Positions 43,201-55,763 of a DNA stretch of 64,000 bases are shown piece by piece. The DNA is from Candidatus Latescibacterota bacterium (GTDB lineage Bacteria > Latescibacterota > UBA2968 > UBA8231), in the NCBI GenBank assembly GCA_965206595.1, contig OZ242214.1, forward strand, positions 4,768,001-4,832,000. Direction: 5' to 3'. Both the position numbers and the translations under genes were made by a program. Positions within the stretch are counted from its first letter, which is position 1, and every line of letters starts with the position of its first letter. The notes below the pieces were generated by a model. It saw only the letters and a list, made by a program, of their open reading frames with translations, searched no databases and was not told the origin of the DNA.

Positions 43201-43539
43201 GAACCCCGGGCCGAGGAGCTGGCCGCTATCGCCGTCGAGCGCCTGACCGAGCGCGGCAACCGCGAGGAGCAGGATCTGCGGGAGACGCTCGAGCGCCAGC
43301 GCGCCCGGGTGATCGAGGAGCTGGAAAATTACGATCGCAAGTTCACTCAGCTGACCCTGGACTTCAACGCGGAGGAGAAAGGCCAAGTCGAGGCGAACAT
43401 GCGTGGGTGGCGTCATCGTCTCGAACAGTTCGAGAAGGACCTTGAAGTGGAGCCGGCCCGCGTGCGCGAGTTCTACGAGGTCCGGGCGACCCGGGTGGAG
43501 CCGGTCGGCCTGGCCTACCTGTGGCCGGAGACCAACTGA
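40246..43539 (+). CDS. drmD: DISARM SNF2-family helicase DrmD
   Basis: ADDTGLGKT, DEAH, SATPH, WNPGRIEQRNGRIDR; first gene of the drm cluster. Confidence 0.9.
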   Translation: MTSFINSLPEKTPEPGQLVLVRSRRWLVEEVVANGAASPLVRLACADDDAQGQSLEVYWDYEIDRLILEEEGWADLASKGFDSPRQFAAFLHTLRWNCVTATNPNLFQSPFRAGIKIDAYQMEPLRKALRLPRVNLFIADDTGLGKTIEAGLIARELLLRRKAKTIVVSAPPSVIEQWRGELEERFGLVFEILDRRYLARVRRERGFGVNPWRTHSRFLVSHNLLIDPTYADPMREWLGGLLPGSLLILDEAHHAAPSSGGRYGIETKFTRAIRDLCGRFEHRLFLSATPHNGHSNSFSTLLELLDPYRFTRGVKIRGKGELEEVMVRRLKEDIREIQGGFPRRIVERMGIDNLPPEAPEILLSELLDQYRTAREERHATTSLRSQAAAGLLVVGLQQRLLSSIEAFARTLQVHRRTVVKQWEKQQEAEAEIPESEEQDSLLRTAPDSDDERGEWEEDQLEAEEEAEVEAMTVAAEAGGLRDERTEELWNREQKLLDRMEKIAEETRYLPDAKVRRLIQWIRENLCPGLPSFGEIAQGEPAPWNDRRVLIFTENREGTKRYLKTILEEAIAGTDLADERIEVIDGLVSSTNRREIQKRFNTHPAKDPLRILLATDAAREGLNFQAHCTDLFHFDLPWNPGRIEQRNGRIDRKLQPAPEVRCHYFVLPQRAEDRVLEVLVRKTERIKRELGSLSKVIDDDVERLLRGGIRHANAGRLAEEIERADLDENRKQVAEEELEGARERREDLKVQISRCQTLLQNSRGWVRFEEGAFRDALSCSLELLGANPLEETRDQEGRRVWRFPALDQKAETDASWSSTLDTLRQPKKPDQKVTEWRQQAPIRPVVFEDPGAVTEDSVHLHLEQRVAQRLLARFRAQGFIYHDLSRACLAQARDSIPRVILLGRLSLFGRGAERLHEELVPVAARWVEASKRKGPLRAYARETELRTLDLLEEALTGDGMRVPHETIRRRLLETAARDIEELLPQLEPRAEELAAIAVERLTERGNREEQDLRETLERQRARVIEELENYDRKFTQLTLDFNAEEKGQVEANMRGWRHRLEQFEKDLEVEPARVREFYEVRATRVEPVGLAYLWPETN

Positions 43540-43541
43540 GC

Positions 43542-46500
43542 ATGGCCAAGCTGGACCCACAGGTACTCAGGCACCTCGAGTGGATCGGCTTCGTCCAGCC
43601 GAGCGGTCTCGTCGTCTCCGCGCCGGCGCTGGTGCGCGCAAGTGCCATCCTCGACCGGCAGGACGCCGAAGGGCAGCGGCGGCTGCGCGACTGCGTCGAG
43701 GAAAGGGCGTTCCCGCAGGACCGCGATCCGGAGCCGTGGTTGCCCGACTTCGAGACCTTCGCGAGGACCGTTCTGGAGTGGAACTTCTCGCCGAGAGGCT
43801 ACGCCGGCACCACAGAGAACCCCATCCCTGAGGACCTGATAGTGACCGCCGCGGATGGGGAAACCCTCGCCCCCGACTTCGCCGTCCGCGAGCGCAGCCC
43901 CGGGGAAGGAGAGTCCGACTGGCAGCTCCTCGTCCAGGTCCTGGAGCCGGGGCAGGCATTCGACAAGGAAGTGAAGGGCTCCGGAACGCTTGAAGCCTCC
44001 CCGCACAGCAGGATGGAGCGGCTCCTGCGGCGCACCGAAGTGAAGGCCGGCCTGCTGTTCAACGGCCTGGCAATCCGGCTGATCTCGGCGCCTCGGGGCG
44101 AAAGCTCCGGCTGGATGGACTTCCGCGTGGCGGAGATGGTGCAGACCTCCGGCCGGCCGATCTGCGCCGCCATGCGGCTGCTCTTGAAGGAAAGCCGGCT
44201 GTTGGCCATGCCCGCCCCGCAGCGGCTGGCGGCCCTGCTCGTGGACAGCCGCAAGTTTCAGAACGAGGTCAGCGAGCGGCTGGCTGAGCAGGTGCTGCAC
44301 GCCCTCTACGAGATGCTGCGGGGATTCCAGGCGGCGCACGACGCCTCGCACGGAGAGCTGCTGCGACGGACCCTCGCTGAGAATCCCGACCGCGTCTACC
44401 ACGCCCTGCTGACCATGATCCTGCGGCTCGTGTTTCTGCTCTACGCCGAAGAGCGGGACATGCTACCCAAGGACGGGACCTTCCAGCGCTACTACTCCCT
44501 CCTGGGACTGTACGAGCGCCTGCGCGAGGACGCGGCCCTGTTCCCCGACACCATGGACCAGCGCTACGGCGCCTGGGCGCAGCTGCTGGTGCTGTTCCGC
44601 CTGATCCACGACGGCGCCGAGACCGGGGCGATGAGCCTTCCCAGGCGGCACGGCGTCCTCTTCGACCCGGACCGGTTTCCGTTCCTCGAGGGTCGGCCGG
44701 ACATGGTGGCGCGCCAGATTCACGAGCGCATCGAGCCGCCCCTGGTAGCGGACGGCACCATCTACCGCGCCCTGGAGAAGCTGCTGGTGCTCGACGGCGA
44801 GCGGATCTCCTACCGGGCCCTCGACGTGGAGCAGATCGGCTCGGTCTACGAGACCATGATGGGGTTCCGCCTGGAGACCGCGAGCGGAAGGTCCTTGGCG
44901 ATAAAGGCCGCGAAGAAGCAGGGCGCACCCACGACCGTGGACCTGGAGGCGCTCGCGGCGGAACCGGGAACCCGGCGTGACAAGTGGTTCCGGGACCGCG
45001 CCGACCGGAAGCTCGGCGACAAAGTGAAGAAGGCCGTGAAAGAGGCGGAGAGGCTGGAGGACCTGCACGCGGCCCTCATGCCGGTGATCGAGGTCGACGC
45101 CACGCCCGACCTCGTGCCGCAGGGGGCGATGGTGCTGCAGCCCAGTGAAGAGAGGCGCCGCTCCGGTTCGCACTACACGCCGCGCGAGTTGACCGAGCCG
45201 ATCGTGCGCACGACGCTGGAGCCGATTCTGGGGCGGCTGCAGGGAGGGAACGGAAATCCCCCGCGGCCCGAACAGATCCTCGACCTCAAGGTCTGCGACC
45301 CGGCCATGGGCTCGGGCGCGTTTCTGGTTGAGGCTTGCCGCCAGCTTGGAGACGCCCTCGTCGAGGCTTGGCGCGCCCACGGCGAGGTGCCGGAAATCCC
45401 GCCCGACGAGGACGAGGGGATCTTCGCCCGCCGGCTGATCGCCCAGCGTTGCCTCTACGGGGTGGACCGCAACCCGATGGCGGTCGACCTGGCCAAGGTT
45501 TCGCTATGGCTCGCCACTCTGGCCAAGGATCACGCGTTGACCTTCGTCGATCATGCCCTGAGAGATGGGGATTCCCTGGTCGGCCTGTCCCGAAAGCAGA
45601 TAGAGACGTTTCACTGGGAACGGGAGGAATCGCCCTCGTTCATGCTGGGCTTCGAGACCATGCGGGTTCGGGATCAGGTGCAAGAGGCCGCCGAGTTGCG
45701 AGAGCTCATCCGGGAGGCGGGCGAGGAAACCGCCGACTGGGAGTTGCGCGACCTGTGGAACCGGGCGCAGTTCGCGTTGCGCAAGGTGCGGCTTTTCGGA
45801 GACCTGGCCACGGCGGCCTTTTTCGACGGGCCTAAGCCGAAGCAGCGGGAGGCGAAGCGCCGCGAGTACGGCGAAGCGATATTCGGAGGCAAAGCCGAGC
45901 AGTACCTGGATTGGCTCGACGAGCGCCGCAAGGTAGAACCGCCCCTGGCGCCGTTCCACTGGGAGGTCGAGTTCCCGGAGGTGTTCGACCGCGAAAACCC
46001 TGGGTTCGACGCAATCGTGGGGAATCCGCCGTTTCTTGGTGGTACAAAGATCTCGTCAACTCTCGGCAAGAACTTCCTTGATTGGCTGCTTGGCTTGCAC
46101 GAAGGATCCCATGGTAACGCCGATCTCGTAGCCCATTTCTTTCGACGTGCATTCTATCTCGTCCGCACGGACGCCAGCTTCGGTCTAATCGCCACCAACA
46201 CCATCGCCCAAGGGGACACGCGTTCGACCGGCCTGCGCTGGATCTGCAACCATGGGGGAGAGATCTATCACGCGCGCCGGCGGGTCAAATGGCCAGGGGT
46301 CGCAGCAGTAGTTGTGAGCGTTTTGCACCTTTGGAAGGGATCGTCGTTAAGTGTTCTTAAGAAACTCGACGAAAAGGAAATGGATATGATTACGGCATTC
46401 CTTTTCCACCGAGGAGGTCACGATGATCCGAGCCGGCTCTCGGCGAATGTCGGCAAGAGTTACACGGGCTCTAAGGTTTATGGTCAAGGCTTTACCTTCG

Positions 46501-47570
46501 ACGATGCGGACAAGAAGGGCGTCGCATCATCGCTCGCGGAGATGCGTCGAATCATCGAGCAGAACCCTCGTAACCAAGAGGTGATTTTCCCCTACATTGG
46601 AGGGGAGGAGGTAAACACAAGCCCAACCCATTCTAACCACCGGTACGTCATCAACTTCCACACCTTTCCGCTGCGCCGGGAGGACTTGGGCGAACGGTGG
46701 CTGAACGCAGACCCGAATCAGTGTCGTGAATGGCTTCAGAGGGGAATCGTGCCCCTCGACTATCCCGGACGCGTAGCGTCAGACTGGCCGGAACTGCTGG
46801 CCGTTGTGGCGGCGAGAGTGAAACCAGATCGCGCCAAGCTCACACAAAACCCCATTGGACGAAAGCGCGCTGCCTTCTGGTGGCAGTACGGATCGCATGC
46901 CAATGAACTATACAGCGCCATTACCGGCATGAAGCGCGTGTTGGCTAACTCGCAAGTCAGCCAAAGAGTGCAGTTCGCTTTCTTGCCAGCAGAAATGGTG
47001 TACTCACATGCCTTGAATGTATATCCAATTCAAACTTACGCCGCTTTTTGCGCACTCCAGTCCCGCCCCCACGAGACCTGGGCACGGTTCTTCGGGTCGT
47101 CAATGAAGGATGACCTCCGCTACACCCCTACAGATTGTTTCGAGACATTCCCTTTCTCCGATGGCTGGGAAACCGACCCGGCCCTCGAAGTCGCAGCCCA
47201 AGCCTACTACGATTTCCGCGCCAGCCTTTTGGTCCGGAACAACCAAGGGCTGACCAAGACCTACAACCGCTTCCACGACCCTGACGAAGACCACCCCGAC
47301 ATCGCCAAGCTCCGCGACCTGCACGCCGCGATGGACCGGGTCGTACTCGATGCCTATGGTTGGAACGACATCCCCACCGACTGCGAGTTCCTCCTCGACT
47401 ACGAGATCGACGAGGAAGAGTGGGGCAAACGCAAGAAGCCCTACCGCTACCGCTGGCCCGACGACATCCGGGACGAAGTGCTGGCGCGGCTCCTCGAACT
47501 GAACGCCAAGCGCCCCAAACGAGAGACAGGTACCAAACCAGCGTACTGGGAAGACGACGATGACGAATGA
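43542..47570 (+). CDS. drmMI: DISARM class I DNA adenine methyltransferase DrmMI
   Basis: SGSHYTP, DPAMGSGAFL, GNPPF (N6 methyltransferase), TRD-like C-terminal region, RYTPTDCFETFPF; starts 2 bp after drmD. Confidence 0.88.
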   Translation: MAKLDPQVLRHLEWIGFVQPSGLVVSAPALVRASAILDRQDAEGQRRLRDCVEERAFPQDRDPEPWLPDFETFARTVLEWNFSPRGYAGTTENPIPEDLIVTAADGETLAPDFAVRERSPGEGESDWQLLVQVLEPGQAFDKEVKGSGTLEASPHSRMERLLRRTEVKAGLLFNGLAIRLISAPRGESSGWMDFRVAEMVQTSGRPICAAMRLLLKESRLLAMPAPQRLAALLVDSRKFQNEVSERLAEQVLHALYEMLRGFQAAHDASHGELLRRTLAENPDRVYHALLTMILRLVFLLYAEERDMLPKDGTFQRYYSLLGLYERLREDAALFPDTMDQRYGAWAQLLVLFRLIHDGAETGAMSLPRRHGVLFDPDRFPFLEGRPDMVARQIHERIEPPLVADGTIYRALEKLLVLDGERISYRALDVEQIGSVYETMMGFRLETASGRSLAIKAAKKQGAPTTVDLEALAAEPGTRRDKWFRDRADRKLGDKVKKAVKEAERLEDLHAALMPVIEVDATPDLVPQGAMVLQPSEERRRSGSHYTPRELTEPIVRTTLEPILGRLQGGNGNPPRPEQILDLKVCDPAMGSGAFLVEACRQLGDALVEAWRAHGEVPEIPPDEDEGIFARRLIAQRCLYGVDRNPMAVDLAKVSLWLATLAKDHALTFVDHALRDGDSLVGLSRKQIETFHWEREESPSFMLGFETMRVRDQVQEAAELRELIREAGEETADWELRDLWNRAQFALRKVRLFGDLATAAFFDGPKPKQREAKRREYGEAIFGGKAEQYLDWLDERRKVEPPLAPFHWEVEFPEVFDRENPGFDAIVGNPPFLGGTKISSTLGKNFLDWLLGLHEGSHGNADLVAHFFRRAFYLVRTDASFGLIATNTIAQGDTRSTGLRWICNHGGEIYHARRRVKWPGVAAVVVSVLHLWKGSSLSVLKKLDEKEMDMITAFLFHRGGHDDPSRLSANVGKSYTGSKVYGQGFTFDDADKKGVASSLAEMRRIIEQNPRNQEVIFPYIGGEEVNTSPTHSNHRYVINFHTFPLRREDLGERWLNADPNQCREWLQRGIVPLDYPGRVASDWPELLAVVAARVKPDRAKLTQNPIGRKRAAFWWQYGSHANELYSAITGMKRVLANSQVSQRVQFAFLPAEMVYSHALNVYPIQTYAAFCALQSRPHETWARFFGSSMKDDLRYTPTDCFETFPFSDGWETDPALEVAAQAYYDFRASLLVRNNQGLTKTYNRFHDPDEDHPDIAKLRDLHAAMDRVVLDAYGWNDIPTDCEFLLDYEIDEEEWGKRKKPYRYRWPDDIRDEVLARLLELNAKRPKRETGTKPAYWEDDDDE

Positions 47571-47692
47571 CAGCTTACACCTTTGGCCGTAAGTGCGTGG
47601 ACTCCTTGGGACGCATCGGAACAGGACATGGTACTGCCGTCAAAGCTGTTCGCCCGCAATCGAGGCACACAGCTATCGTTTGTAAGTCCCAG

Positions 47693-49849
47693 ATGACTGA
47701 AAAAATCCTTCAGGATCCTCCCGGTGTAGTGGATTACATCGACCAGATTCGTCAACTCGCAGATGACAATAGGTCCTCTCTCGGTTTTCTCCCCGCAAGT
47801 GCCTATACAGAAGCCGCAATGAAAGGACACCTCTGGATCGCCATCGACAGGAATACGAAGAAACTACGTGGTCATCTGTTCTTTGGCGGAAGCTATCCCC
47901 ACCTCAAGGTCTTCCAAGTCCATGTTCTCCCTGAGTATCGATTTGAAGGCGTAGGAGGAAGACTGGTCGGGGCGCTCAAGGAATACGGGGAAGACAACAG
48001 TTGGTTGACCATCCGTTCCAGAGTGGCTTCGGACTTGGAGGCGAACAAATTCTGGCAGGGGTCGGGGTTTCGAATTGTACGCCAGATCCCTGGAAAATCG
48101 AAAAGGACGATAAACGTTTATGAACTCGAACTGGACGTCCCATCCCTTTTCGGTAGGAGACAGTTTCCCGGGGCATCCAGTGGTGATGACGGAAGGCAAA
48201 TAGCCTACGCCAGGCCCCTGTTGCCCACGCCCTCCTATGTGATCGATCTGAACGTATTCTTCGATGCTGTGAGGCAACGGGATGCGGGAGAGTCAGCTTT
48301 CATATTCTCCTCGGCTCTAAACGGCGAAATACGTGTCAGGGTCACCCCTGAATTCAGGAGGGAACTGGAACGTCGCTCGCCAGATGTGTCCGACGACCCT
48401 GTTCTGGAATTTGCCAGAACCCTCCCGACCTTGCCAGAAATATCGCCAGGAATACTGGCGCGTCTGATTTAGGATCTGAAAGACAAACTTTCGGTGGCTG
48501 ATACAAGAACGGGTAAGTGGGCCGCAAATGAGCAATCGGATCTTGTTCACTTGGCATCGTGCATTCATCATAAAGCCTTCGGTTTTGTAACTCGCGACGC
48601 CAGAATTCTTCGACACAGCGGGACACTTCTGGAAAAGTACAGCCTGAGAGTTATATCACCCCTTGACCTCAGGGAACCGTTCGGGGAGGTGGACACATAC
48701 CTGCCTGAGTTCTCGGTAGCTGTTGGCCAAGAGGAAATCAGGGTTTCAAATCTTGATGAAGGCGATGCGGGGGCCGAGAGCTTCCTGAGAGAGATGGGGA
48801 TTGATGAAACCGCTATATCCTATTGTCTTGCCGCTGGAACAACGCAGTCTCCGAGGACGAGATTGGTTGTACGAACGGGGGAGGGAATAGTAGGAATAGG
48901 ATCATGGGAGGCAAGAACCAGTTTGTCCAGGAAGGCGGACGCATACCTATATGTCGACGAGGGGAACTGGAATGCTGACAGAGCGATCGATTACCTGTTG
49001 GAATCCATGACCAACCGGGGGCATCAGGGACAACTATTCTCGTTCGACCTGAAGACGGGGCCAGGGCAAAGACTGACCCGAGAAGTGGCAATCCGCAGGG
49101 GATTCCAGCCGATTCGAGGTGAAGAAGGAAATGCTTTACAGAGTCTCAGGAAGGTGTCCCATAGAGGAGTAATTACAAATGACAATTGGGAGTCCTTCAG
49201 AAATGACTTCAAGGAAGCTACTGGTTTTGAACTTGCTCACAGCATGCCAAAGCACGATGAGTTGTCCAACACCGGCATTGTCTTTAATAACAGATCTTGG
49301 CCTATAACGCTTTCCCTTTTCGACTTCGAAACCTTGGTGTCTCCCGGCTCGATCATTTGTCCCGGCCGAGGCGGCGTAATTGTGCCCATTAGGGAGAGAT
49401 TTGCCCATGAATTGGTACCCCCGACCGATAGTCAGACATCATTTCTTCCTGGTAAGGAAGCTGCATTGCGGTTGGAAAGGGCCTATTTCTGCCGGGTCGG
49501 GACCCAGAGAATGGTCGGACGGGGCACAGTGTTGGTCTTCTATGTCAGCGGCAGACAGAAGGCGGCCGTTGCCATTGCGAGGGCTACCTTCTGTGACAAG
49601 CTGACGAAGACCCAAGCGGTATTGAACCTCCGGAGGCAAGGAGTATTATCGGAGGAGGAAATAGGCCAGAGGGCAAATTCTAATGGTGAGCTCACGGCGA
49701 TGACCTTTGATAACCTGTTCCTTTTCCGCAGAAGTATTCCTTACCGGGACCTGAAGCAGATGGGATGTGTGGGAGGAGCGAATCTGGTTACAGCACAGCG
49801 ACTTTCCCATGAAGCACTTTCCGCAATCGTGGAAAGAGTATTGGATTGA
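47693..49849 (+). pseudogene. GNAT-PIN-GNAT-like-EVE/ASCH multidomain protein interrupted by a single in-frame TAG (48470-48472)
   Basis: ORFs 47567..48472 and 48494..49849 share a frame. GNAT (V.PEYRFEGVG, ANKFW...GF); PIN acidic residues on both sides of the stop (VIDLN, ELE | SDLVH, VTRD); PUA-like C-terminus (IVPI...F, RAYF, VFYVS). Confidence 0.75.
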
Positions 49850-50318: not shown

Positions 50319-50502
50319 GGATCCTGGCAAACGCCCAACCCCTGAAAAAATTCGTTCGCTCCCTAACAGAACCGGATTTGGGAGGCTTTCGTAACGCGGA
50401 AAAAGCCCGTGATCGAAGAGGAACGGGAAAAGCAGCACCACCTGCTCCTGGAGGACTTTGGAGACCATTCTCTATGGCCGCCCATCCACTAAATCCTTTT
50501 GG

Positions 50503-50807
50503 CTCCTGCAAGATGCTCCACGCCTACGGAGGCCGCTGCCTCCTCATCCCCGCCACCAACCACGAGGGTCTCCTCGATACCGCCATCTGGCGGGGCTTCG
50601 AGGAAGTGCTTTCCTCAAGCCGCCTACGCTTCGCTGTGCCGGCTACTTGCGGTCAAGCTGCGCGGTGGACGACGGGGTTTCGAGGTGGTGGAGATCGCCG
50701 GGCGGGGCCGGTTCAAGGGCGCCAGTCATGCCGACGTCGGGCGCTTCGTGCGCCGGGCAGTGAAGGAGATGGTGCTGGAAGGTGAGGCTCCGGGTGCAGC
50801 ACCTTGA
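50503..50807 (+). pseudogene. Frameshifted C-terminal relic of a classical AAA ATPase
   Basis: Across frames: LLQ/ML..YGGRCLLIPATNHEGLLDTAIWRGFEEVL (degraded second region of homology) then RLLAVKLRG...GASHADV.RFVRRAVKEMVL. Confidence 0.6.
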
Positions 50808-50874
50808 GTCGGCGCGACAGTCGGACAACTTCCCCTGGCGCGTAACGTACTTGCGGAACAGGGGTGGGTGACAA

Positions 50875-51255
50875 ATGGCTGAGAACGACTGGTACGAAGA
50901 ACTTCCGGAGGACTGCCCGCCAAGAGACGCGGGGGCGCCCGTTTCTGAACCGCACTTCCGGGTCGTTCGGACGATTCCCCCGACTGACTGCGATTTCGTT
51001 TCCCAGAGAGCACTCTACCCGGAACGACCGTTCTCGGTACCTGAGTGCCAGGCACGGGCGGTATCGCTTTTCCCCGTTCGCAAGAGCGCCAGTGGGGTCT
51101 TGAAATTGCCACGGTTCAAGGGTGGAGCGATCGTTTCCCTTACTCTTCCTCCAACCGCTGGCGTTACCAAGAAGACCGGTGGCAAGCCGGGCCACGTGTC
51201 CTGGTGGCGCCGCGCCAACTTCGACCCGGTCCCATTGGCCTTGCCAGTTAGCTGA
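50875..51255 (+). CDS. Small hypothetical protein, candidate ADP-ribosyltransferase/RES-like fold
   Basis: 126 aa; LP..CPP, HFR, DF.S, C.A.AVSLF, GHVSWW; 15 bp before the next gene. Confidence 0.55.
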   Translation: MAENDWYEELPEDCPPRDAGAPVSEPHFRVVRTIPPTDCDFVSQRALYPERPFSVPECQARAVSLFPVRKSASGVLKLPRFKGGAIVSLTLPPTAGVTKKTGGKPGHVSWWRRANFDPVPLALPVS

Positions 51256-51270
51256 AGCGGGGGCTCAACA

Positions 51271-52440
51271 ATGCGCAGATCCGTCCGGCTTGTGCGAACC
51301 CTGATCTACTACGATGGACCTCAGGTGATCGTGGCCAGTGATGAGGTGGGACAACTCTATCTCGGATTGCTGGTCCAGGCCCCGGACGGCGGGGATGCAT
51401 ACCTGCTGACGCCCATCTCAGCAAGTCGGTTGTATCAACTGGAGACCGGTATTCTGGACGTCCGCGGTGCGCTTACGATCCCTGAAGTTGACGAGTACTA
51501 TACTGCGGCGCTCACTGGTGACACCGAAGTGGAGGACCGCTTGCCGCTGTCTCCAGTGGGTCACCCCCCTGAGAAGTGGCTCCCCGAGCCCGACCTTCGA
51601 GTGTCGGACTTCGTGGAGCCGGACGCTGTGACGCAGGAGGTAACGTCCCGTGGCAAGGCCGTCTTGCACCTTCGGATGAGCCCTCCCGAATCCCACATCG
51701 CGGCACAGATAGGTGTTACCAACCTGGCCATATGTCTGTCACTTTTCCAGAATCTGGTTGGCCAGGCATATCGGAAGGTTCTTCGCGATGTCGGCCCCGA
51801 TACACGAAAAATGATTGCCGATGAGTCTAACTGGATGATGGACGTCTCTGGCTTTTCCCACGGGTCCTTCACCATCCATTTGCAGTCGAGGGCGGAGCCT
51901 GACTTGCTCGGATACGTAGGTCTGTCCCGGGCCCTGGATCGGGTCGATGCCCTGACCGAAGGCATCGATGCACCGGAGGCAGGACTTTCGACTATGCGTC
52001 AGAACAGGGGTCACCTCGTAGCTGCCTATCGGCGATTGCTGAAGTTCCTGGTTGACTCGGAATCGGCCCTTGGATACCAGTGGTCGGCACCGGACCGGAC
52101 GTTCTCATCCACCAGGGCGATTTCTCGAGATTCCGCAGAGAGACTCTACAGCTTGATCGTGGCGCAGAAGGACTTGACGGTCGAGGAGGTCAGTCTCAGG
52201 GGTGTCTTCATACACGTCAACGTGGAATCGGGCCTCTGGACCCTGCGGGACGACGAAGGGATCTCGCATCACGGCCGTTCCGCCAGTGACTTGCAAGGCG
52301 CGCTGAGTGGTTTGATCGTGGACACTCAACGATACGAGGTGGACTGCATTGAACGAGTTGAAGAGACTGGAGTTGGCGAGATCCGGACAAGTCTTGAGTT
52401 GAAGGGGATCGAGCCACTCGAAGGGATAACTACTGCATGA
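51271..52440 (+). CDS. DUF6575-like N-terminal domain protein
   Basis: 389 aa; L.YYDGPQV....D..G..YLG....YL..PIS..RL..L..G..DVR, LPEPD, GSF; family recognised from memory. Confidence 0.55.
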   Translation: MRRSVRLVRTLIYYDGPQVIVASDEVGQLYLGLLVQAPDGGDAYLLTPISASRLYQLETGILDVRGALTIPEVDEYYTAALTGDTEVEDRLPLSPVGHPPEKWLPEPDLRVSDFVEPDAVTQEVTSRGKAVLHLRMSPPESHIAAQIGVTNLAICLSLFQNLVGQAYRKVLRDVGPDTRKMIADESNWMMDVSGFSHGSFTIHLQSRAEPDLLGYVGLSRALDRVDALTEGIDAPEAGLSTMRQNRGHLVAAYRRLLKFLVDSESALGYQWSAPDRTFSSTRAISRDSAERLYSLIVAQKDLTVEEVSLRGVFIHVNVESGLWTLRDDEGISHHGRSASDLQGALSGLIVDTQRYEVDCIERVEETGVGEIRTSLELKGIEPLEGITTA

Positions 52441-52558
52441 GTGCCGGGGAGAACAGCGGTTGTGAGTCGCCCCAGAGGAGCCTCTGGGCCAGCCTGGCGA
52501 GCTCGACTGGTCCGCGATCGCTACGGCACTGGTTACTTCTAACGCGGAGGAAGATGGG

Positions 52559-53131
52559 ATGGTAGAGTACAAGACAGGCAACATCCTCGACGAGGATGTG
52601 GAAGCCCTCGTAAACACGGTCAACTGCGTCGGCTTCATGGGCAGGGGAATCGCCCTGCAGTTCAAGAAGTCCTGGCCTGATAATTTCAAGGCATATGAAG
52701 CTGCCTGTCGCAAGAAGGAAGTTCAGCCTGGACGCATGTTCGTGTTCGAAACGGGACAGTTGGTTTCGCCTCGCTACATCATCAACTTCCCGACCAAGCG
52801 GCACTGGCGGGGCAAGTCCAGGATCGAAGACATCGACTCGGGTCTGAATGCGCTGATTGCCGAAGTCCGGTCTCGGAAAATCTGCTCCATCGCGATTCCT
52901 CCCTTGGGCGCTGGGCTCGGCGGACTTGCCTGGGCAGATGTACGGGTGCGGATCGAAAGGGCAATGCAGGACCTTCCGGACGTACGGACGATAGTGTTCA
53001 AACCCCATGATGCTCCTGATCCGGTGGAACCAGCAACTGCGAGAAGGGTGCCCGGGAGGCAGCAAATACCATCGGACAAGCCATCCATTCCCGCAGGCAA
53101 TGCCAATGGAATCAAAGCTCAAACATCTTGA
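52559..53131 (+). CDS. DarG-type macrodomain (ADP-ribose glycohydrolase) lacking the C-terminal domain
   Basis: ALVNTVNCVG.MGRGIALQFK, IINFPTKRHWR..S, SIAIPPLGAGLGGL.W; homology ends at about aa 165; GGAGG RBS. Confidence 0.85.
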   Translation: MVEYKTGNILDEDVEALVNTVNCVGFMGRGIALQFKKSWPDNFKAYEAACRKKEVQPGRMFVFETGQLVSPRYIINFPTKRHWRGKSRIEDIDSGLNALIAEVRSRKICSIAIPPLGAGLGGLAWADVRVRIERAMQDLPDVRTIVFKPHDAPDPVEPATARRVPGRQQIPSDKPSIPAGNANGIKAQTS

Positions 53132-53534
53132 ATTGATCCAAGGAGTGGTCAACCGCCTTGCGACCGACTCGTTCCGCGTGAAGGGGTGGATCGTGGTTCT
53201 GGTCACTGCCTTGTTCGTCCTGTTGGCGATAGAGGATCGCCTCCATGCTGCCTACATCGCATTGGCACCTGTCCTCGTCTTCTGGGGCCTCGACGGCTAC
53301 TACCTGTGGCAGGAGCGCCTGTTCCGGGCGCTTTACGACCGTGTCCGGGTGGTGGACGAAAGTGAAGTCGACTTTTCAATGGCCACCGCTGCGTTCCGAA
53401 CGGGTTGGAAGCGCTCTTGGCTTGGCTCAACCTTGTCGATAACGCTGGTTCCGTTCTACGGAGCTCTCATCATCGCGATTGTTCTGGTCGTATTCTACCT
53501 TCCAGGAGAACAAGCTATTAATAACGGCTCGTAG
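53106..53534 (+). CDS. Small multi-TM protein of the type found next to ThsB-like TIR genes
   Basis: KLKHLELIQGVVNRLA..SF..KGW, FWGLDGYYL.QERLFRALYD.VR; three hydrophobic segments. Confidence 0.7.
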   Translation: MESKLKHLELIQGVVNRLATDSFRVKGWIVVLVTALFVLLAIEDRLHAAYIALAPVLVFWGLDGYYLWQERLFRALYDRVRVVDESEVDFSMATAAFRTGWKRSWLGSTLSITLVPFYGALIIAIVLVVFYLPGEQAINNGS

Positions 53535-53637
53535 AGGCCGGGACGGCGTCGCCGATTCCGTACAAAGGCGGATAGGTTTCTTTACCTACCCTTCCGGATA
53601 GCACCCCTTTCCGTCTTGCTTTCGAGAGGATACAACG

Positions 53638-55215
53638 ATGCGTTTTTTCAGCACTGCTGGTCCGGTCAAGCCCGAAAAGCACCACTGCATCCCGCCGTTG
53701 GACCGGCTGAACCTCGCCGAGGTGCTCGCGTTGGTGCGGGACGAGAAGTACTTCGTTTTGCATGCGCCGCGTCAGACGGGCAAGACGTCGGTCCTCCTGG
53801 CGCTGCGCGACCTGCTCAACGCCGGAGTGGCCTATCGCTGCGTGTACGTCAATGTCGAGGCCGGGCAAACCGGGCGCGAAGACGTGGAACAGGTCATGCG
53901 CACCATTCTGGGAACGTTGGCGTTGCGAGCGAGCGTGACCCTGGACGACGAATTTCTGCTCGCGGTCTGGTCGGACATCTTAGCCGAGTTCGGTCCGCAC
54001 GCCGCTCTGCAAGTGGCGTTGACGCGCTGGTCCAAGGCCGACCCGAAGCCCTTGGTGCTGCTCATCGACGAAATTGATTCCTTGATCGGCGATTCCTTGC
54101 TGTCGGTGCTGCGCCAGTTGCGGTCGGGATACGATCTGCGGCCAGAGGGTTTTCCGCAGAGCGTGGTGCTGTGCGGGGTGCGCGACGTGCGCGACTATCG
54201 CATTCAATCCACCGCGGAGAACGCCATCATCGCCGGTGGCAGCGCGTTCAATATAAAAGCGGCATCCCTGCGGTTAGGGGACTTTTCCCGGGAGGAGGTG
54301 CGGGCGCTGCTCGGTCAGCACACCGAGGAGACGGGGCAGGTGTTTACCCCCGAGGCGCTGGAGACGGTCTGGACGCAGACACAAGGGCAGCCGTGGCTGG
54401 TCAACGCGCTGGGCGACGAAGCCTGTTTCCAGGGCGAATGTGCGCAGGCGTGGCATCGTCCGGTCACCGCCGAAGCCATCCGCGCCGCCCAGGAGCAGCT
54501 CATCCTGCGGCGCGAGACGCATCTGGACCAGTTGGCCGACAAACTCAAGGAGGAGCGGGTTCGCCGGGTTGTCGAGCCGCTGTTGAGCGGCGGAGAGGAA
54601 CGCCACTTCGCCGACCGCGACATCGAGTATGTGCGGGATCTCGGGCTGGTCGCACAAGACCTGCCGTATCGCATCGCCAACCCGATCTATGCCGAGGTGG
54701 TGCCGCGCGAACTGACGTGGGTGGTGCAGGGGGAATTCGAGCAGGACGCCGCCTGGTATGTGGATGCCGGGGGGGGGCTGGACGTGGTCAAGCTGCTGTC
54801 GGCGTTCCAGGAGTTCTTCCGCGAGCACTCCGAACACTGGGTCGAGCGATTCGAGTACAGGGAAGCCGGCCCCCAGTTGCTGCTGCAGGCGTTTTTGCAG
54901 CGGATCGTCAACAGCGGCGGTCGCATCGAGCGCGAGTACGGATTGGGGCGGATGCGGACGGACTTGCTGATCGTGTGGCCGCAAGGAGAGCGGACGCGCC
55001 GGTTCGTCGTCGAGTGCAAGGTGCTGCACAGGAGCTTGGAGCAGACGATTGCCGAGGGATTGGAACAGACGTTCGAATACATGGATCGCTGCGGAGGGGA
55101 GGCGGGCCACCTGGTGATTTTCGACCGGCGTGAAGGTCGGCGTTGGGCGGACAAACTGTTTCACTGCCGCCGGGTGTCGGACAGCGGGGTCGAGATCGAT
55201 GTGTGGGGGATGTGA
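53638..55215 (+). CDS. AAA-like ATPase with C-terminal PD-(D/E)XK nuclease-like domain
   Basis: Walker A APRQTGKT, Walker B LLIDEID, REYGLGRMRTDLLI...VVECK. Confidence 0.8.
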   Translation: MRFFSTAGPVKPEKHHCIPPLDRLNLAEVLALVRDEKYFVLHAPRQTGKTSVLLALRDLLNAGVAYRCVYVNVEAGQTGREDVEQVMRTILGTLALRASVTLDDEFLLAVWSDILAEFGPHAALQVALTRWSKADPKPLVLLIDEIDSLIGDSLLSVLRQLRSGYDLRPEGFPQSVVLCGVRDVRDYRIQSTAENAIIAGGSAFNIKAASLRLGDFSREEVRALLGQHTEETGQVFTPEALETVWTQTQGQPWLVNALGDEACFQGECAQAWHRPVTAEAIRAAQEQLILRRETHLDQLADKLKEERVRRVVEPLLSGGEERHFADRDIEYVRDLGLVAQDLPYRIANPIYAEVVPRELTWVVQGEFEQDAAWYVDAGGGLDVVKLLSAFQEFFREHSEHWVERFEYREAGPQLLLQAFLQRIVNSGGRIEREYGLGRMRTDLLIVWPQGERTRRFVVECKVLHRSLEQTIAEGLEQTFEYMDRCGGEAGHLVIFDRREGRRWADKLFHCRRVSDSGVEIDVWGM

Positions 55216-55373
55216 GCGGTGGGGTTCTGGTTGACCCTGAAGTCGGATTTCACCGATGCCCATCGCCGGCACTGGTCAGACGCTGAACTGCTCTTCCAGT
55301 GATGCATCAAAGACAGCCAAGAAGTAAGTCCCCGTGACCGACAAACCCCAGACCCGCAAACCCGGTAGCTGCA

Positions 55374-55763
55374 ATGGTCGTCCGCAACAGCTGGGTGACG
55401 CAGGGAAAGGAGGCAGCGGGTTTTGTTGACGCTGCTGATTTCGAGAAGATCAAGCGACAGGGGGATGCGGCCATTGAGCGATGGATCGACAACCAACTCC
55501 TTGGCACCTCCGTAACCGTCGTATTGGTAGGAGCTCGCACCTGTTCAAGCAGGTGGGTAAAGTACGAAATAGAGCAGAGCAAGAAGCGGAACAACGGTTT
55601 ACTTGGAATCGACATCGGCAAAATCAAGGATCTGGATGGAAACACGACTAAACGGTGCGGCAAAATACCGGCTGGTTACCCGTTCTATCTCTGGAATAAA
55701 CATGATGGCTACAACAACATGGACGATTGGATAGAGGAAGCGGCCAGGGACGCAGGGCGCTGA
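55374..55763 (+). pseudogene. ThsB/MTH538-like TIR domain (DUF1863) lacking its first beta strand
   Basis: VRNSWV, WIDNQL.GTSVTVVLVG..T..S.WV.YEI..S..R.NGLLGI, WIEEAA; the usual MARR-VFFSF N-terminus is absent. Confidence 0.75.

Follow-up and report, generated by a model that had tools for sequence, protein, structure and literature searches.

The DNA analysed here, referred to as the window, is a stretch of 64,000 nucleotides from the genome of an uncultured Latescibacterota bacterium (contig OZ242214.1, positions 4,768,001 to 4,832,000), and the element of interest within it is a pair of adjacent genes, A and B, which, from the profile matches of its family, is most likely a distant relative of the anti-phage toxin–antitoxin (TA) pair PD-T4-10. 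Gene A (50875-51255, plus strand) encodes a protein of 126 amino acids (aa) and gene B (51271-52440, plus strand) one of 389 aa, the two open reading frames (ORFs) being separated by 15 base pairs (bp). A third ORF of 190 aa (52559-53131, plus strand) carries a macrodomain and lies downstream of the pair. All three start codons are preceded by purine-rich stretches, and the sequence GGAGGA stands 8 nt upstream of the ATG of the macrodomain ORF. An earlier note, made from the letters of this DNA, had described a tight, intact pair of an ADP-ribosyltransferase (ART)-like gene and a DUF6575-like gene, followed by a DarG-type macrodomain gene with its own ribosome-binding site; the ORFs, the GGAGGA, the predicted fold of A and the Pfam match of B all bear this out, and the two genes do occur together elsewhere. 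Its view of which protein is the toxin, and of what the macrodomain does here, fares differently, as is set out below.

No profile of Pfam, NCBIfam, PADLOC or PHROGs is matched by the A of the window, and only four close relatives are found by word-based search. A full HMMER scan with a profile of these four relatives reaches 1466 representative clusters at E<=1e-3, of which 517 are found at E<=1e-10, and the members of the family are nearly all 115-150 aa long. An alignment of 65 sequences (identity 35-58%, except for four closer relatives at 47-96%) has eight invariant columns: L10, C14, P15, R29, S64, G96, H107 and W111. The invariant polar residues R29, S64 and H107 fall in the motifs PHFRVV, RAVSLF and GHVSWW and are the Arg, Ser and His that had been singled out by eye in HFR, AVSLF and GHVSWW; further conserved residues are D40, E57, C58, S109 and W110. 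Pfam and NCBIfam scans of the 65 members gave scattered chance matches only, and a profile search against the sequences of the Protein Data Bank gave a single chance match at E 1.3.

The AlphaFold model of A (predicted local distance difference test, pLDDT, 92.5; predicted template modelling score, pTM, 0.85) is predicted to have a minimal ART fold with its split β-sheet. A Foldseek search with the model returns weak E-values (0.24 or above), with Tpt1/KptA, RES toxins, pertussis S1, cholera A1, Tse2 and ParT in the first rows. When the model was compared with 48,161 chains by VIA-align, at least 45 of the best 50 rows were titled as an ADP-ribosyltransferase, an ART-fold toxin that uses nicotinamide adenine dinucleotide (NAD), or Tpt1/KptA; the remaining rows (BC2332, CC0527, AvrPphF ORF2, Tse2 and SAIP) we presume to be ART-like as well. 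The highest Z-score is that of KptA (7.2 for 9ld3_A, with a root-mean-square deviation (rmsd) of 2.7 Å over 88 residues), of which it is the NAD-binding lobe that matches, followed by Scabin at 6.1, the RES toxin VPA0770 at 5.7, TreX at 5.3, Arr at 4.9 and DarT at 4.0-4.6; the toxins of TA systems include Xre-RES at 4.6, ParT at 4.3, MbcT at 3.9 and NatT at 3.3. The nearest named cluster in the Atlas is Arr at 0.78, a weak lead. As the Z-scores taken alone are middling, it is the uniformity of the list of fold matches that argues for the ART fold. Profiles of individual ART families do not reach the protein: none of the 65 family members matches the RES profile PF08808 at E<=1, and A has no match to the DarT profile PF14487. 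In the model strand 1 carries R29, strand 2 carries S64, and H107 stands at strand 5 or immediately ahead of it, an arrangement that would correspond to the R-S-E order of ARTs. The canonical triad itself (R-S-E or H-Y-E) is absent, the invariant His107 standing at the Glu position as read from strand order and not from a superposition.

Protein B, the putative toxin, scores above the Pfam gathering threshold for DUF6575 (PF20215; 29.7 bits against a cut-off of 26.6, residues 13-82), and a profile search with 10 sequences collects 262 relatives of about 380 aa, most of which carry PF20215. Its structure model (pLDDT 84) has three parts. The N-terminal β-rich domain (aa 1-116; 51271-51618, plus strand) contains the DUF6575 core, is the predicted docking site of A and bears the nearly invariant motif T10-L11-x-Y13-Y14-D15-G16-P17. 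The central α/β domain (aa ~119-300; 51625-52170, plus strand), delimited by the secondary structure of the model, has E123, R127, E140, Q160, D191, S199, D226 and H248 as conserved residues, and an Atlas search with residues 105-300 returned DUF6575 or unnamed clusters only, at 0.88 or below. The C-terminal part (aa ~303-385; 52177-52425, plus strand) is an oligonucleotide/oligosaccharide-binding (OB) fold of the SSB/PriB kind according to both VIA-align and Foldseek: PriB, SSB and Rim1 are found at VIA-align Z-scores of 10.0-9.3, with rmsd values of 2.2-2.5 Å over 78-82 residues for PriB and Rim1, while Foldseek gives a probability of 1.0 to SSB, RPA, IF1 and CspA at E ~4e-3. Full-length phage homologues of B are present in BFVD, all of them uncharacterised. 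A homologue on a Rhodococcus plasmid (L077, 3366-4589) fits the partner profile over positions 4-261 only, so that another effector module may make up its C-terminal part.

The pair can be compared with PD-T4-10, which was described as two overlapping hypothetical ORFs from Escherichia coli ECOR65 that protect against T-even phages by abortive infection (Vassallo et al. 2022, PMC9519451). In that study PD-T4-10B was toxic and was neutralised fully by co-expression of A; A could not be deleted, and deletion of B abolished protection against T4 (PMC9519451). The same paper gives neither protein a predicted function, and its text names DUF6575 among new defence domains without stating in which system it occurs (PMC9519451); a 2024 preprint still lists the genes as being of unknown function. 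The PADLOC model PD-T4-10_A (PDLC04023) is matched by 45 of the 65 A relatives, with a best E of 2.2e-13 and almost complete coverage (positions ~22-140 of 148), and these relatives are in turn tied to the A of the window at E<=1e-22. On the side of B, 23 of 49 relatives match PD-T4-10_B (PDLC04024) by their N-terminal part only, residues ~3-134 aligning with profile positions ~16-134 of 353. The central and C-terminal regions (residues ~115-376) of 30 of the 49 match another PADLOC profile, PDC-M63B, with a best E of 2.7e-13. PDC-M63 is a candidate system, and its component A profile is matched by none of the 65 members of the A family, so its partner protein seems to differ from ours; moreover, the B of the window itself falls below the PDC-M63B models. 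From the Pfam match of B and the PD-T4-10_B matches of its relatives we infer that PD-T4-10B is the DUF6575 protein.

The combination, which the earlier note did not recognise as any named system, thus has a relative with a name. Both PD-T4-10 and the present pair place a small A first and a B of ~350-390 aa second in tightly coupled ORFs, and both are found in defence or prophage contexts. They differ in that the central and C-terminal regions of the B family of the window resemble PDC-M63B and not PD-T4-10_B, and in that A is predicted here to have an ART fold and B to include an OB fold, whereas Vassallo et al. 2022 predict no function. The hosts differ too, ours being an uncultured bacterium in which the pair is known from sequence. 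When an IMG/VR pair was searched for in E. coli genomes with blastn no match was obtained, nor did tblastn against a phage collection give one.

The pair is conserved as a unit well beyond the window. Both genes are present on three related contigs of metagenome-assembled genomes (L001, L002 and L003), and A occurs in 12 of the 168 Latescibacterota genomes searched, eight of which have the intact pair; four of these eight belong to another family, at identities of ~45% for A and ~33% for B. Among IMG/VR loci found with the A alignment, a full-length B follows A directly in 12 of 12 (8 distinct sequences). Their neighbours are terminase and portal genes on either side, or integrases, Bro-N or antirepressor genes and tail genes, so that the pair looks like prophage cargo. 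Both plasmid matches (Oscillatoria and Rhodococcus) also carry the pair, with the Oscillatoria B annotated as a DUF6575 protein, as do two of three metagenome loci found with a narrow A alignment, the third contig ending 400 bp past A. The genes in related loci overlap at start and stop by 4 or 8 bp or are separated by gaps of at most 15 bp. Ratios of non-synonymous to synonymous substitution rates (dN/dS) of 0.12-0.17 for both genes, comparing the window with L001 and L003, indicate purifying selection on A and B alike.

The manner in which the pair decays bears on which of the two proteins is the toxin. Two of the 12 A-carrying Latescibacterota genomes have both genes broken, in one case beside a DDE transposase gene and in the other by a deletion that fuses A to B, and in two more A is intact and only the first ~148 residues of B are left; in none of the 12 is it B that is intact and A that is broken. 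The earlier note had proposed the opposite polarity, with A as the toxin, either an NADase or an ART acting on protein or nucleic acid, B as its antitoxin or sensor, and the DarG macrodomain possibly kept as the eraser of the modification. Such a toxin would be consistent with the ART fold of A and its invariant R, S and H, and the known ART-fold components of TA systems are toxins. However, A persists in the two genomes in which B has lost its effector part, where an orphan toxin would not be tolerated, and in E. coli PD-T4-10 it is the large protein that is toxic and the small one that protects (PMC9519451). The loci of these two genomes (L012 and L013, 1073-1863 in each, minus strand) consist of the intact A followed by the first ~148 codons of B, which encode the DUF6575 docking domain, and this may be an antitoxin left alone with the stump of its toxin, or else a small A-binding protein of a new kind.

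The remaining part of that proposal depends on the macrodomain, the history of which can be traced in some detail. The 190-aa ORF is a truncated darG in which the macrodomain (DarG aa 1-165; 52559-53053, plus strand) runs into downstream sequence. It matches positions 1-162 of 338 only in DarG profiles (NF048014, E 7e-80; PADLOC DarG) and shares 74.5% identity over residues 1-165 with the DarG of L003 by tblastn; after codon 165 it continues into sequence that in L003 is found downstream of darG. L003 itself has an intact darT (215 aa) and darG (349 aa), then PDC-M50A and then the A-B pair. The window lacks a full-length DarG with the C-terminal DarT-binding domain, and, in agreement with the earlier note, searches with PF14487 and the L003 DarT found no darT in the window, in the whole source genome (92.9% complete) or in two congeners, while the positive control, genome G107, was matched at E 4.9e-150. 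The other end of a darG lies on the opposite side of the pair: a 3'-end remnant (50826-50882, plus strand; codons ~330-346, two further codons and a TGA stop), identified by tblastn with the L003 DarG and by aligning the DNA of four loci to an intact darG 3' end. This remnant and gene A overlap in the 8-nt stretch ATGGCTGA, from the ATG of A (50875) to the TGA of the remnant (50880-50882). Such a remnant, comprising the last 17-100 codons of darG, directly precedes A in all four related loci (the window; L001, 7516-7605; L002, 7556-7606; L003, 7400-7597), so the pair probably once followed darG in one operon, which suggests a former darT-darG-A-B operon in this lineage.

Such a former operon would also speak for A as an ART toxin accompanied by an eraser. 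Outside the lineage of the window, though, neither DarG nor DarT was found within the 1.5-5 kb of flanking sequence fetched for each pair, namely at 12 IMG/VR loci, on 2 plasmids, on 2 metagenome contigs and in 4 genomes of genus g24, and the macrodomain gene of the window is itself the product of a deletion. A conserved macrodomain partner was accordingly rejected for want of any DarG or DarT near the pair outside the family of the window, and the macrodomain is read from these alignments as a relic of a broken darTG operon and not as a component of the A-B system. Taken with the polarity of PD-T4-10 and the loss of B next to an intact A, we consider the toxin role for A, with the macrodomain retained as its eraser, to be improbable; the idea of an ART toxin plus a macrodomain eraser is appealing and probably wrong. 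The order of the cassettes around the pair varies, being darT-darG-M50A-pair in L003 and pair-darG(1-165)-M50A in the window, while in L001 a Gabija-like ATPase and a helicase precede the pair. The synonymous divergence (dS) between the window and L003 is ~0.2 for M50A and ~1.1 for the pair, and these differences in order and in dS suggest that cassettes have been shuffled within the island.

In a further scenario, A is a decoy that mimics an ART such as DarT, so that phage anti-ART factors would bind A and thereby release B, the module acting as a back-up to darTG. An ART fold in an antitoxin role and the historical connection to darG in this lineage are in keeping with it, as are the protection that PD-T4-10 gives against T-even phages (PMC9519451) and the counter-defences against DarTG1 that T4-like phages are reported to carry (PMC11825919). 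DarT is, however, a middling structural match of A, and the pair is found without darTG almost everywhere. We therefore regard a guard of this kind as a very long shot.

How A might control B is suggested by a prediction of their complex, which scored an ipSAE of 0.82 against 0.00 for the best control. This level is reached by 116 of 157 solved complexes and by 2 of 215 mismatched pairs, counts that apply only approximately here because custom alignments were used. At least 59% of contacts agree between runs, and the partner pLDDT is at least 83. The predicted interface comprises residues 7-20 of B, which include the YYDGP motif, together with 33-36, 42, 81-83 and 102-116, and, on the side of A, strand 2 including S64, a helix and a loop at 70-82 and the H107-bearing loop 101-107; S64 contacts B residues 13-16 with the lowest expected errors. 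In the model A is thus predicted to dock on the DUF6575 domain of B by the face with which ARTs hold NAD and substrate. Docking on the N-terminal domain fits the modular profile matches, in which the A-binding part is common with PD-T4-10_B and the effector part with PDC-M63B.

We tentatively propose the following mechanism. B would be a growth-arresting effector of 389 aa, with its central domain as the likely active part and the N-terminal DUF6575 domain as a regulatory handle, and its OB fold suggests that it would act on single-stranded DNA or RNA. While A is present it would hold B inactive by docking on the DUF6575 domain, contacts through S64 and H107 included. Phage infection would then remove or outrun the neutralisation by A, and B would stop the cell. 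The module would do so from a defence island in the present genome and from prophages and plasmids elsewhere. The polarity, with B toxic and A protective, is taken by analogy from the E. coli homologue and is most likely the same here; the defence against T-even phages is likewise carried over from that homologue. In our judgement the pair is probably a TA or abortive-infection module of the PD-T4-10 type, in which B is the toxin and the ART-fold A its neutraliser and of which the darG macrodomain forms no part.

It is also conceivable that A neutralises B by catalysis, as an enzymatic antitoxin of a type VII-like kind. It would then ADP-ribosylate B, probably at or close to the conserved YYDGP loop in the DUF6575 domain, or else continuously reverse or cap the action of B on nucleic acid, in the manner of Tpt1/KptA with NAD; neutralisation would require NAD and the R29/S64/H107 site, and not binding alone. 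The invariance of these three residues in all 65 sequences and their R-S-E-like order on strands 1, 2 and 5 are what such an enzyme would lead one to expect, the wider polar conservation of A (D40, E57, C58, S109, C14, W110 and W111) exceeds the needs of a scaffold, and the contacts of S64 with B residues 13-16, and the presence of H107 and loop 101-106 in the predicted interface, are also in its favour. The top structural match of A, the NAD-binding lobe of KptA, points the same way. Set against this, a His occupies the place of the catalytic Glu with which strand 5 should begin, no active ART family is linked to A at the sequence level, strand order is the only ground for grouping R, S and H around a pocket, and no ADP-ribosylating antitoxin was found in the literature searched. 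We hold it rather unlikely, on the strength of the models, that A is an active minimal R-S-H ADP-ribosyltransferase whose role as antitoxin is to modify the DUF6575 domain of the cognate toxin with ADP-ribose. If this were true, it would be the first ADP-ribosylation-based (type VII-like) antitoxin, the release of the OB-fold effector would be coupled to the supply of NAD or to anti-ART factors of phages, and the former darT-darG-A-B operon would link a writer-type antidote with an eraser.

Several observations weigh against a neutraliser of the PD-T4-10 type as the role of A. The Z-scores of its fold are middling, at most 7.2, and hhalign comparison of the A family with 20 KptA and 20 RES sequences of the phylum, which are shallow templates, gave probabilities of 0.04% and 0.14%; with no similarity to these alignments, the ART assignment is one of predicted fold. 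Neither A nor B of the window matches a PADLOC PD-T4-10 model, in searches of the window or of the whole genome, so that the connection with PD-T4-10 is made by way of intermediate sequences. The likeness of B to PD-T4-10_B is confined to its N-terminal third, and the effector part, and hence the toxicity, may differ; the polarity itself comes from one experiment with a distant relative in E. coli. Conserved residues are not over-represented in the predicted interface (permutation p 0.46 for A and 0.14 for B), and many conserved residues of A, namely C14, P15, R29, D40, C58, W110 and W111, lie outside it, which suggests on the predicted structure that A probably has a further function in ligand binding or catalysis. 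Finally, the ART-fold component of a characterised TA system, whether DarT, ParT, MbcT, RES or NatT, is not known to be anything but the toxin.

The module we favour, with B as toxin and A as neutraliser, can be set beside the ADP-ribosylation-based systems that it recalls. It resembles DarTG, an ADP-ribosylation-based TA and defence system, in that a genuine DarG macrodomain adjoins the pair and the start of A is joined to a 3' remnant of darG; it differs in that darT is absent, DarG lacks its C-terminal DarT-binding half, and A is not DarT, to judge from profile and fold comparison, but a predicted antidote. With RES-Xre, ParST, MbcTA and NatRT it shares a small cytoplasmic ART-fold protein with a cognate partner. 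The roles are reversed, though, the ART-fold protein being the predicted neutraliser here, and the partner is a multidomain protein of ~380 aa and not an Xre or COG5642-type antitoxin. Tpt1/KptA, the best fold match of A, is an enzyme with an ART fold that uses NAD to act on the ends of nucleic acids, whereas A has neither its N-terminal RNA lobe nor any sequence-profile similarity to it; the source genome encodes its own KptA elsewhere.

Defence genes flank the pair on both sides, as seen in Pfam and PADLOC scans of the window. Upstream lies an ORF of 1349 aa (43521-47570) with Eco57I/MmeI methyltransferase and MmeI target-recognition domains, a methylase-restriction protein of the MmeI/Eco57I type that is either a type IIG/IIL restriction-modification enzyme or BREX PglX-like. 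It is followed by a PDC-M11A-like gene (47567-49849) with GNAT, PIN and C-terminal domains, which an in-frame stop at 48470-48472 splits into ORFs of 301 and 451 aa; the near-identical locus L002 has a sense codon at this place and a single ORF of 729 aa. Between an ASCH gene and the darG remnant (50320-50825) are ~500 bp of 65% G+C with short overlapping ORFs only, none with a Pfam match. Other members of the island are PDC-M11B, PDC-M50A, a ThsB-like TIR gene and the HEC-01A ATPase. In 53007-55763 the candidate pair of PDC-M50A, a membrane protein, and PDC-M50B, the ThsB-like TIR protein, is interrupted by an AAA_22 ATPase gene (53638-55215, 525 aa); the two genes adjoin each other in L015. 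The TIR gene (55374-55763) has lost its N-terminus and encodes ~18 residues fewer than in L002. The impression that the neighbours of the pair are decayed therefore holds for PDC-M11A, the TIR gene and darG, and does not extend to PDC-M50A, the ASCH gene, the AAA_22 ATPase and the HEC-01A ATPase, whose ORFs are open.

An ART-fold antitoxin paired with an OB-fold toxin, as predicted here, is not in print as far as we could search, subscription journals and figures lying outside the search, and PD-T4-10 has been validated experimentally while both of its proteins are without an assigned function in the papers searched. The locus is probably a variant of a validated abortive-infection TA system that is missed by current defence-finding profiles. 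The 1466 representative clusters of A suggest that the family of PD-T4-10-like A proteins is far larger, and spread more widely, than detection models show, extending to prophages and plasmids and to Cyanobacteria, Actinomycetota and Latescibacterota. The models further suggest that an ART-fold antitoxin with invariant R, S and H would turn round the part that this fold usually plays in TA systems, and that in its toxin a DUF6575 domain for docking would be joined to exchangeable effector parts ending in an OB fold.

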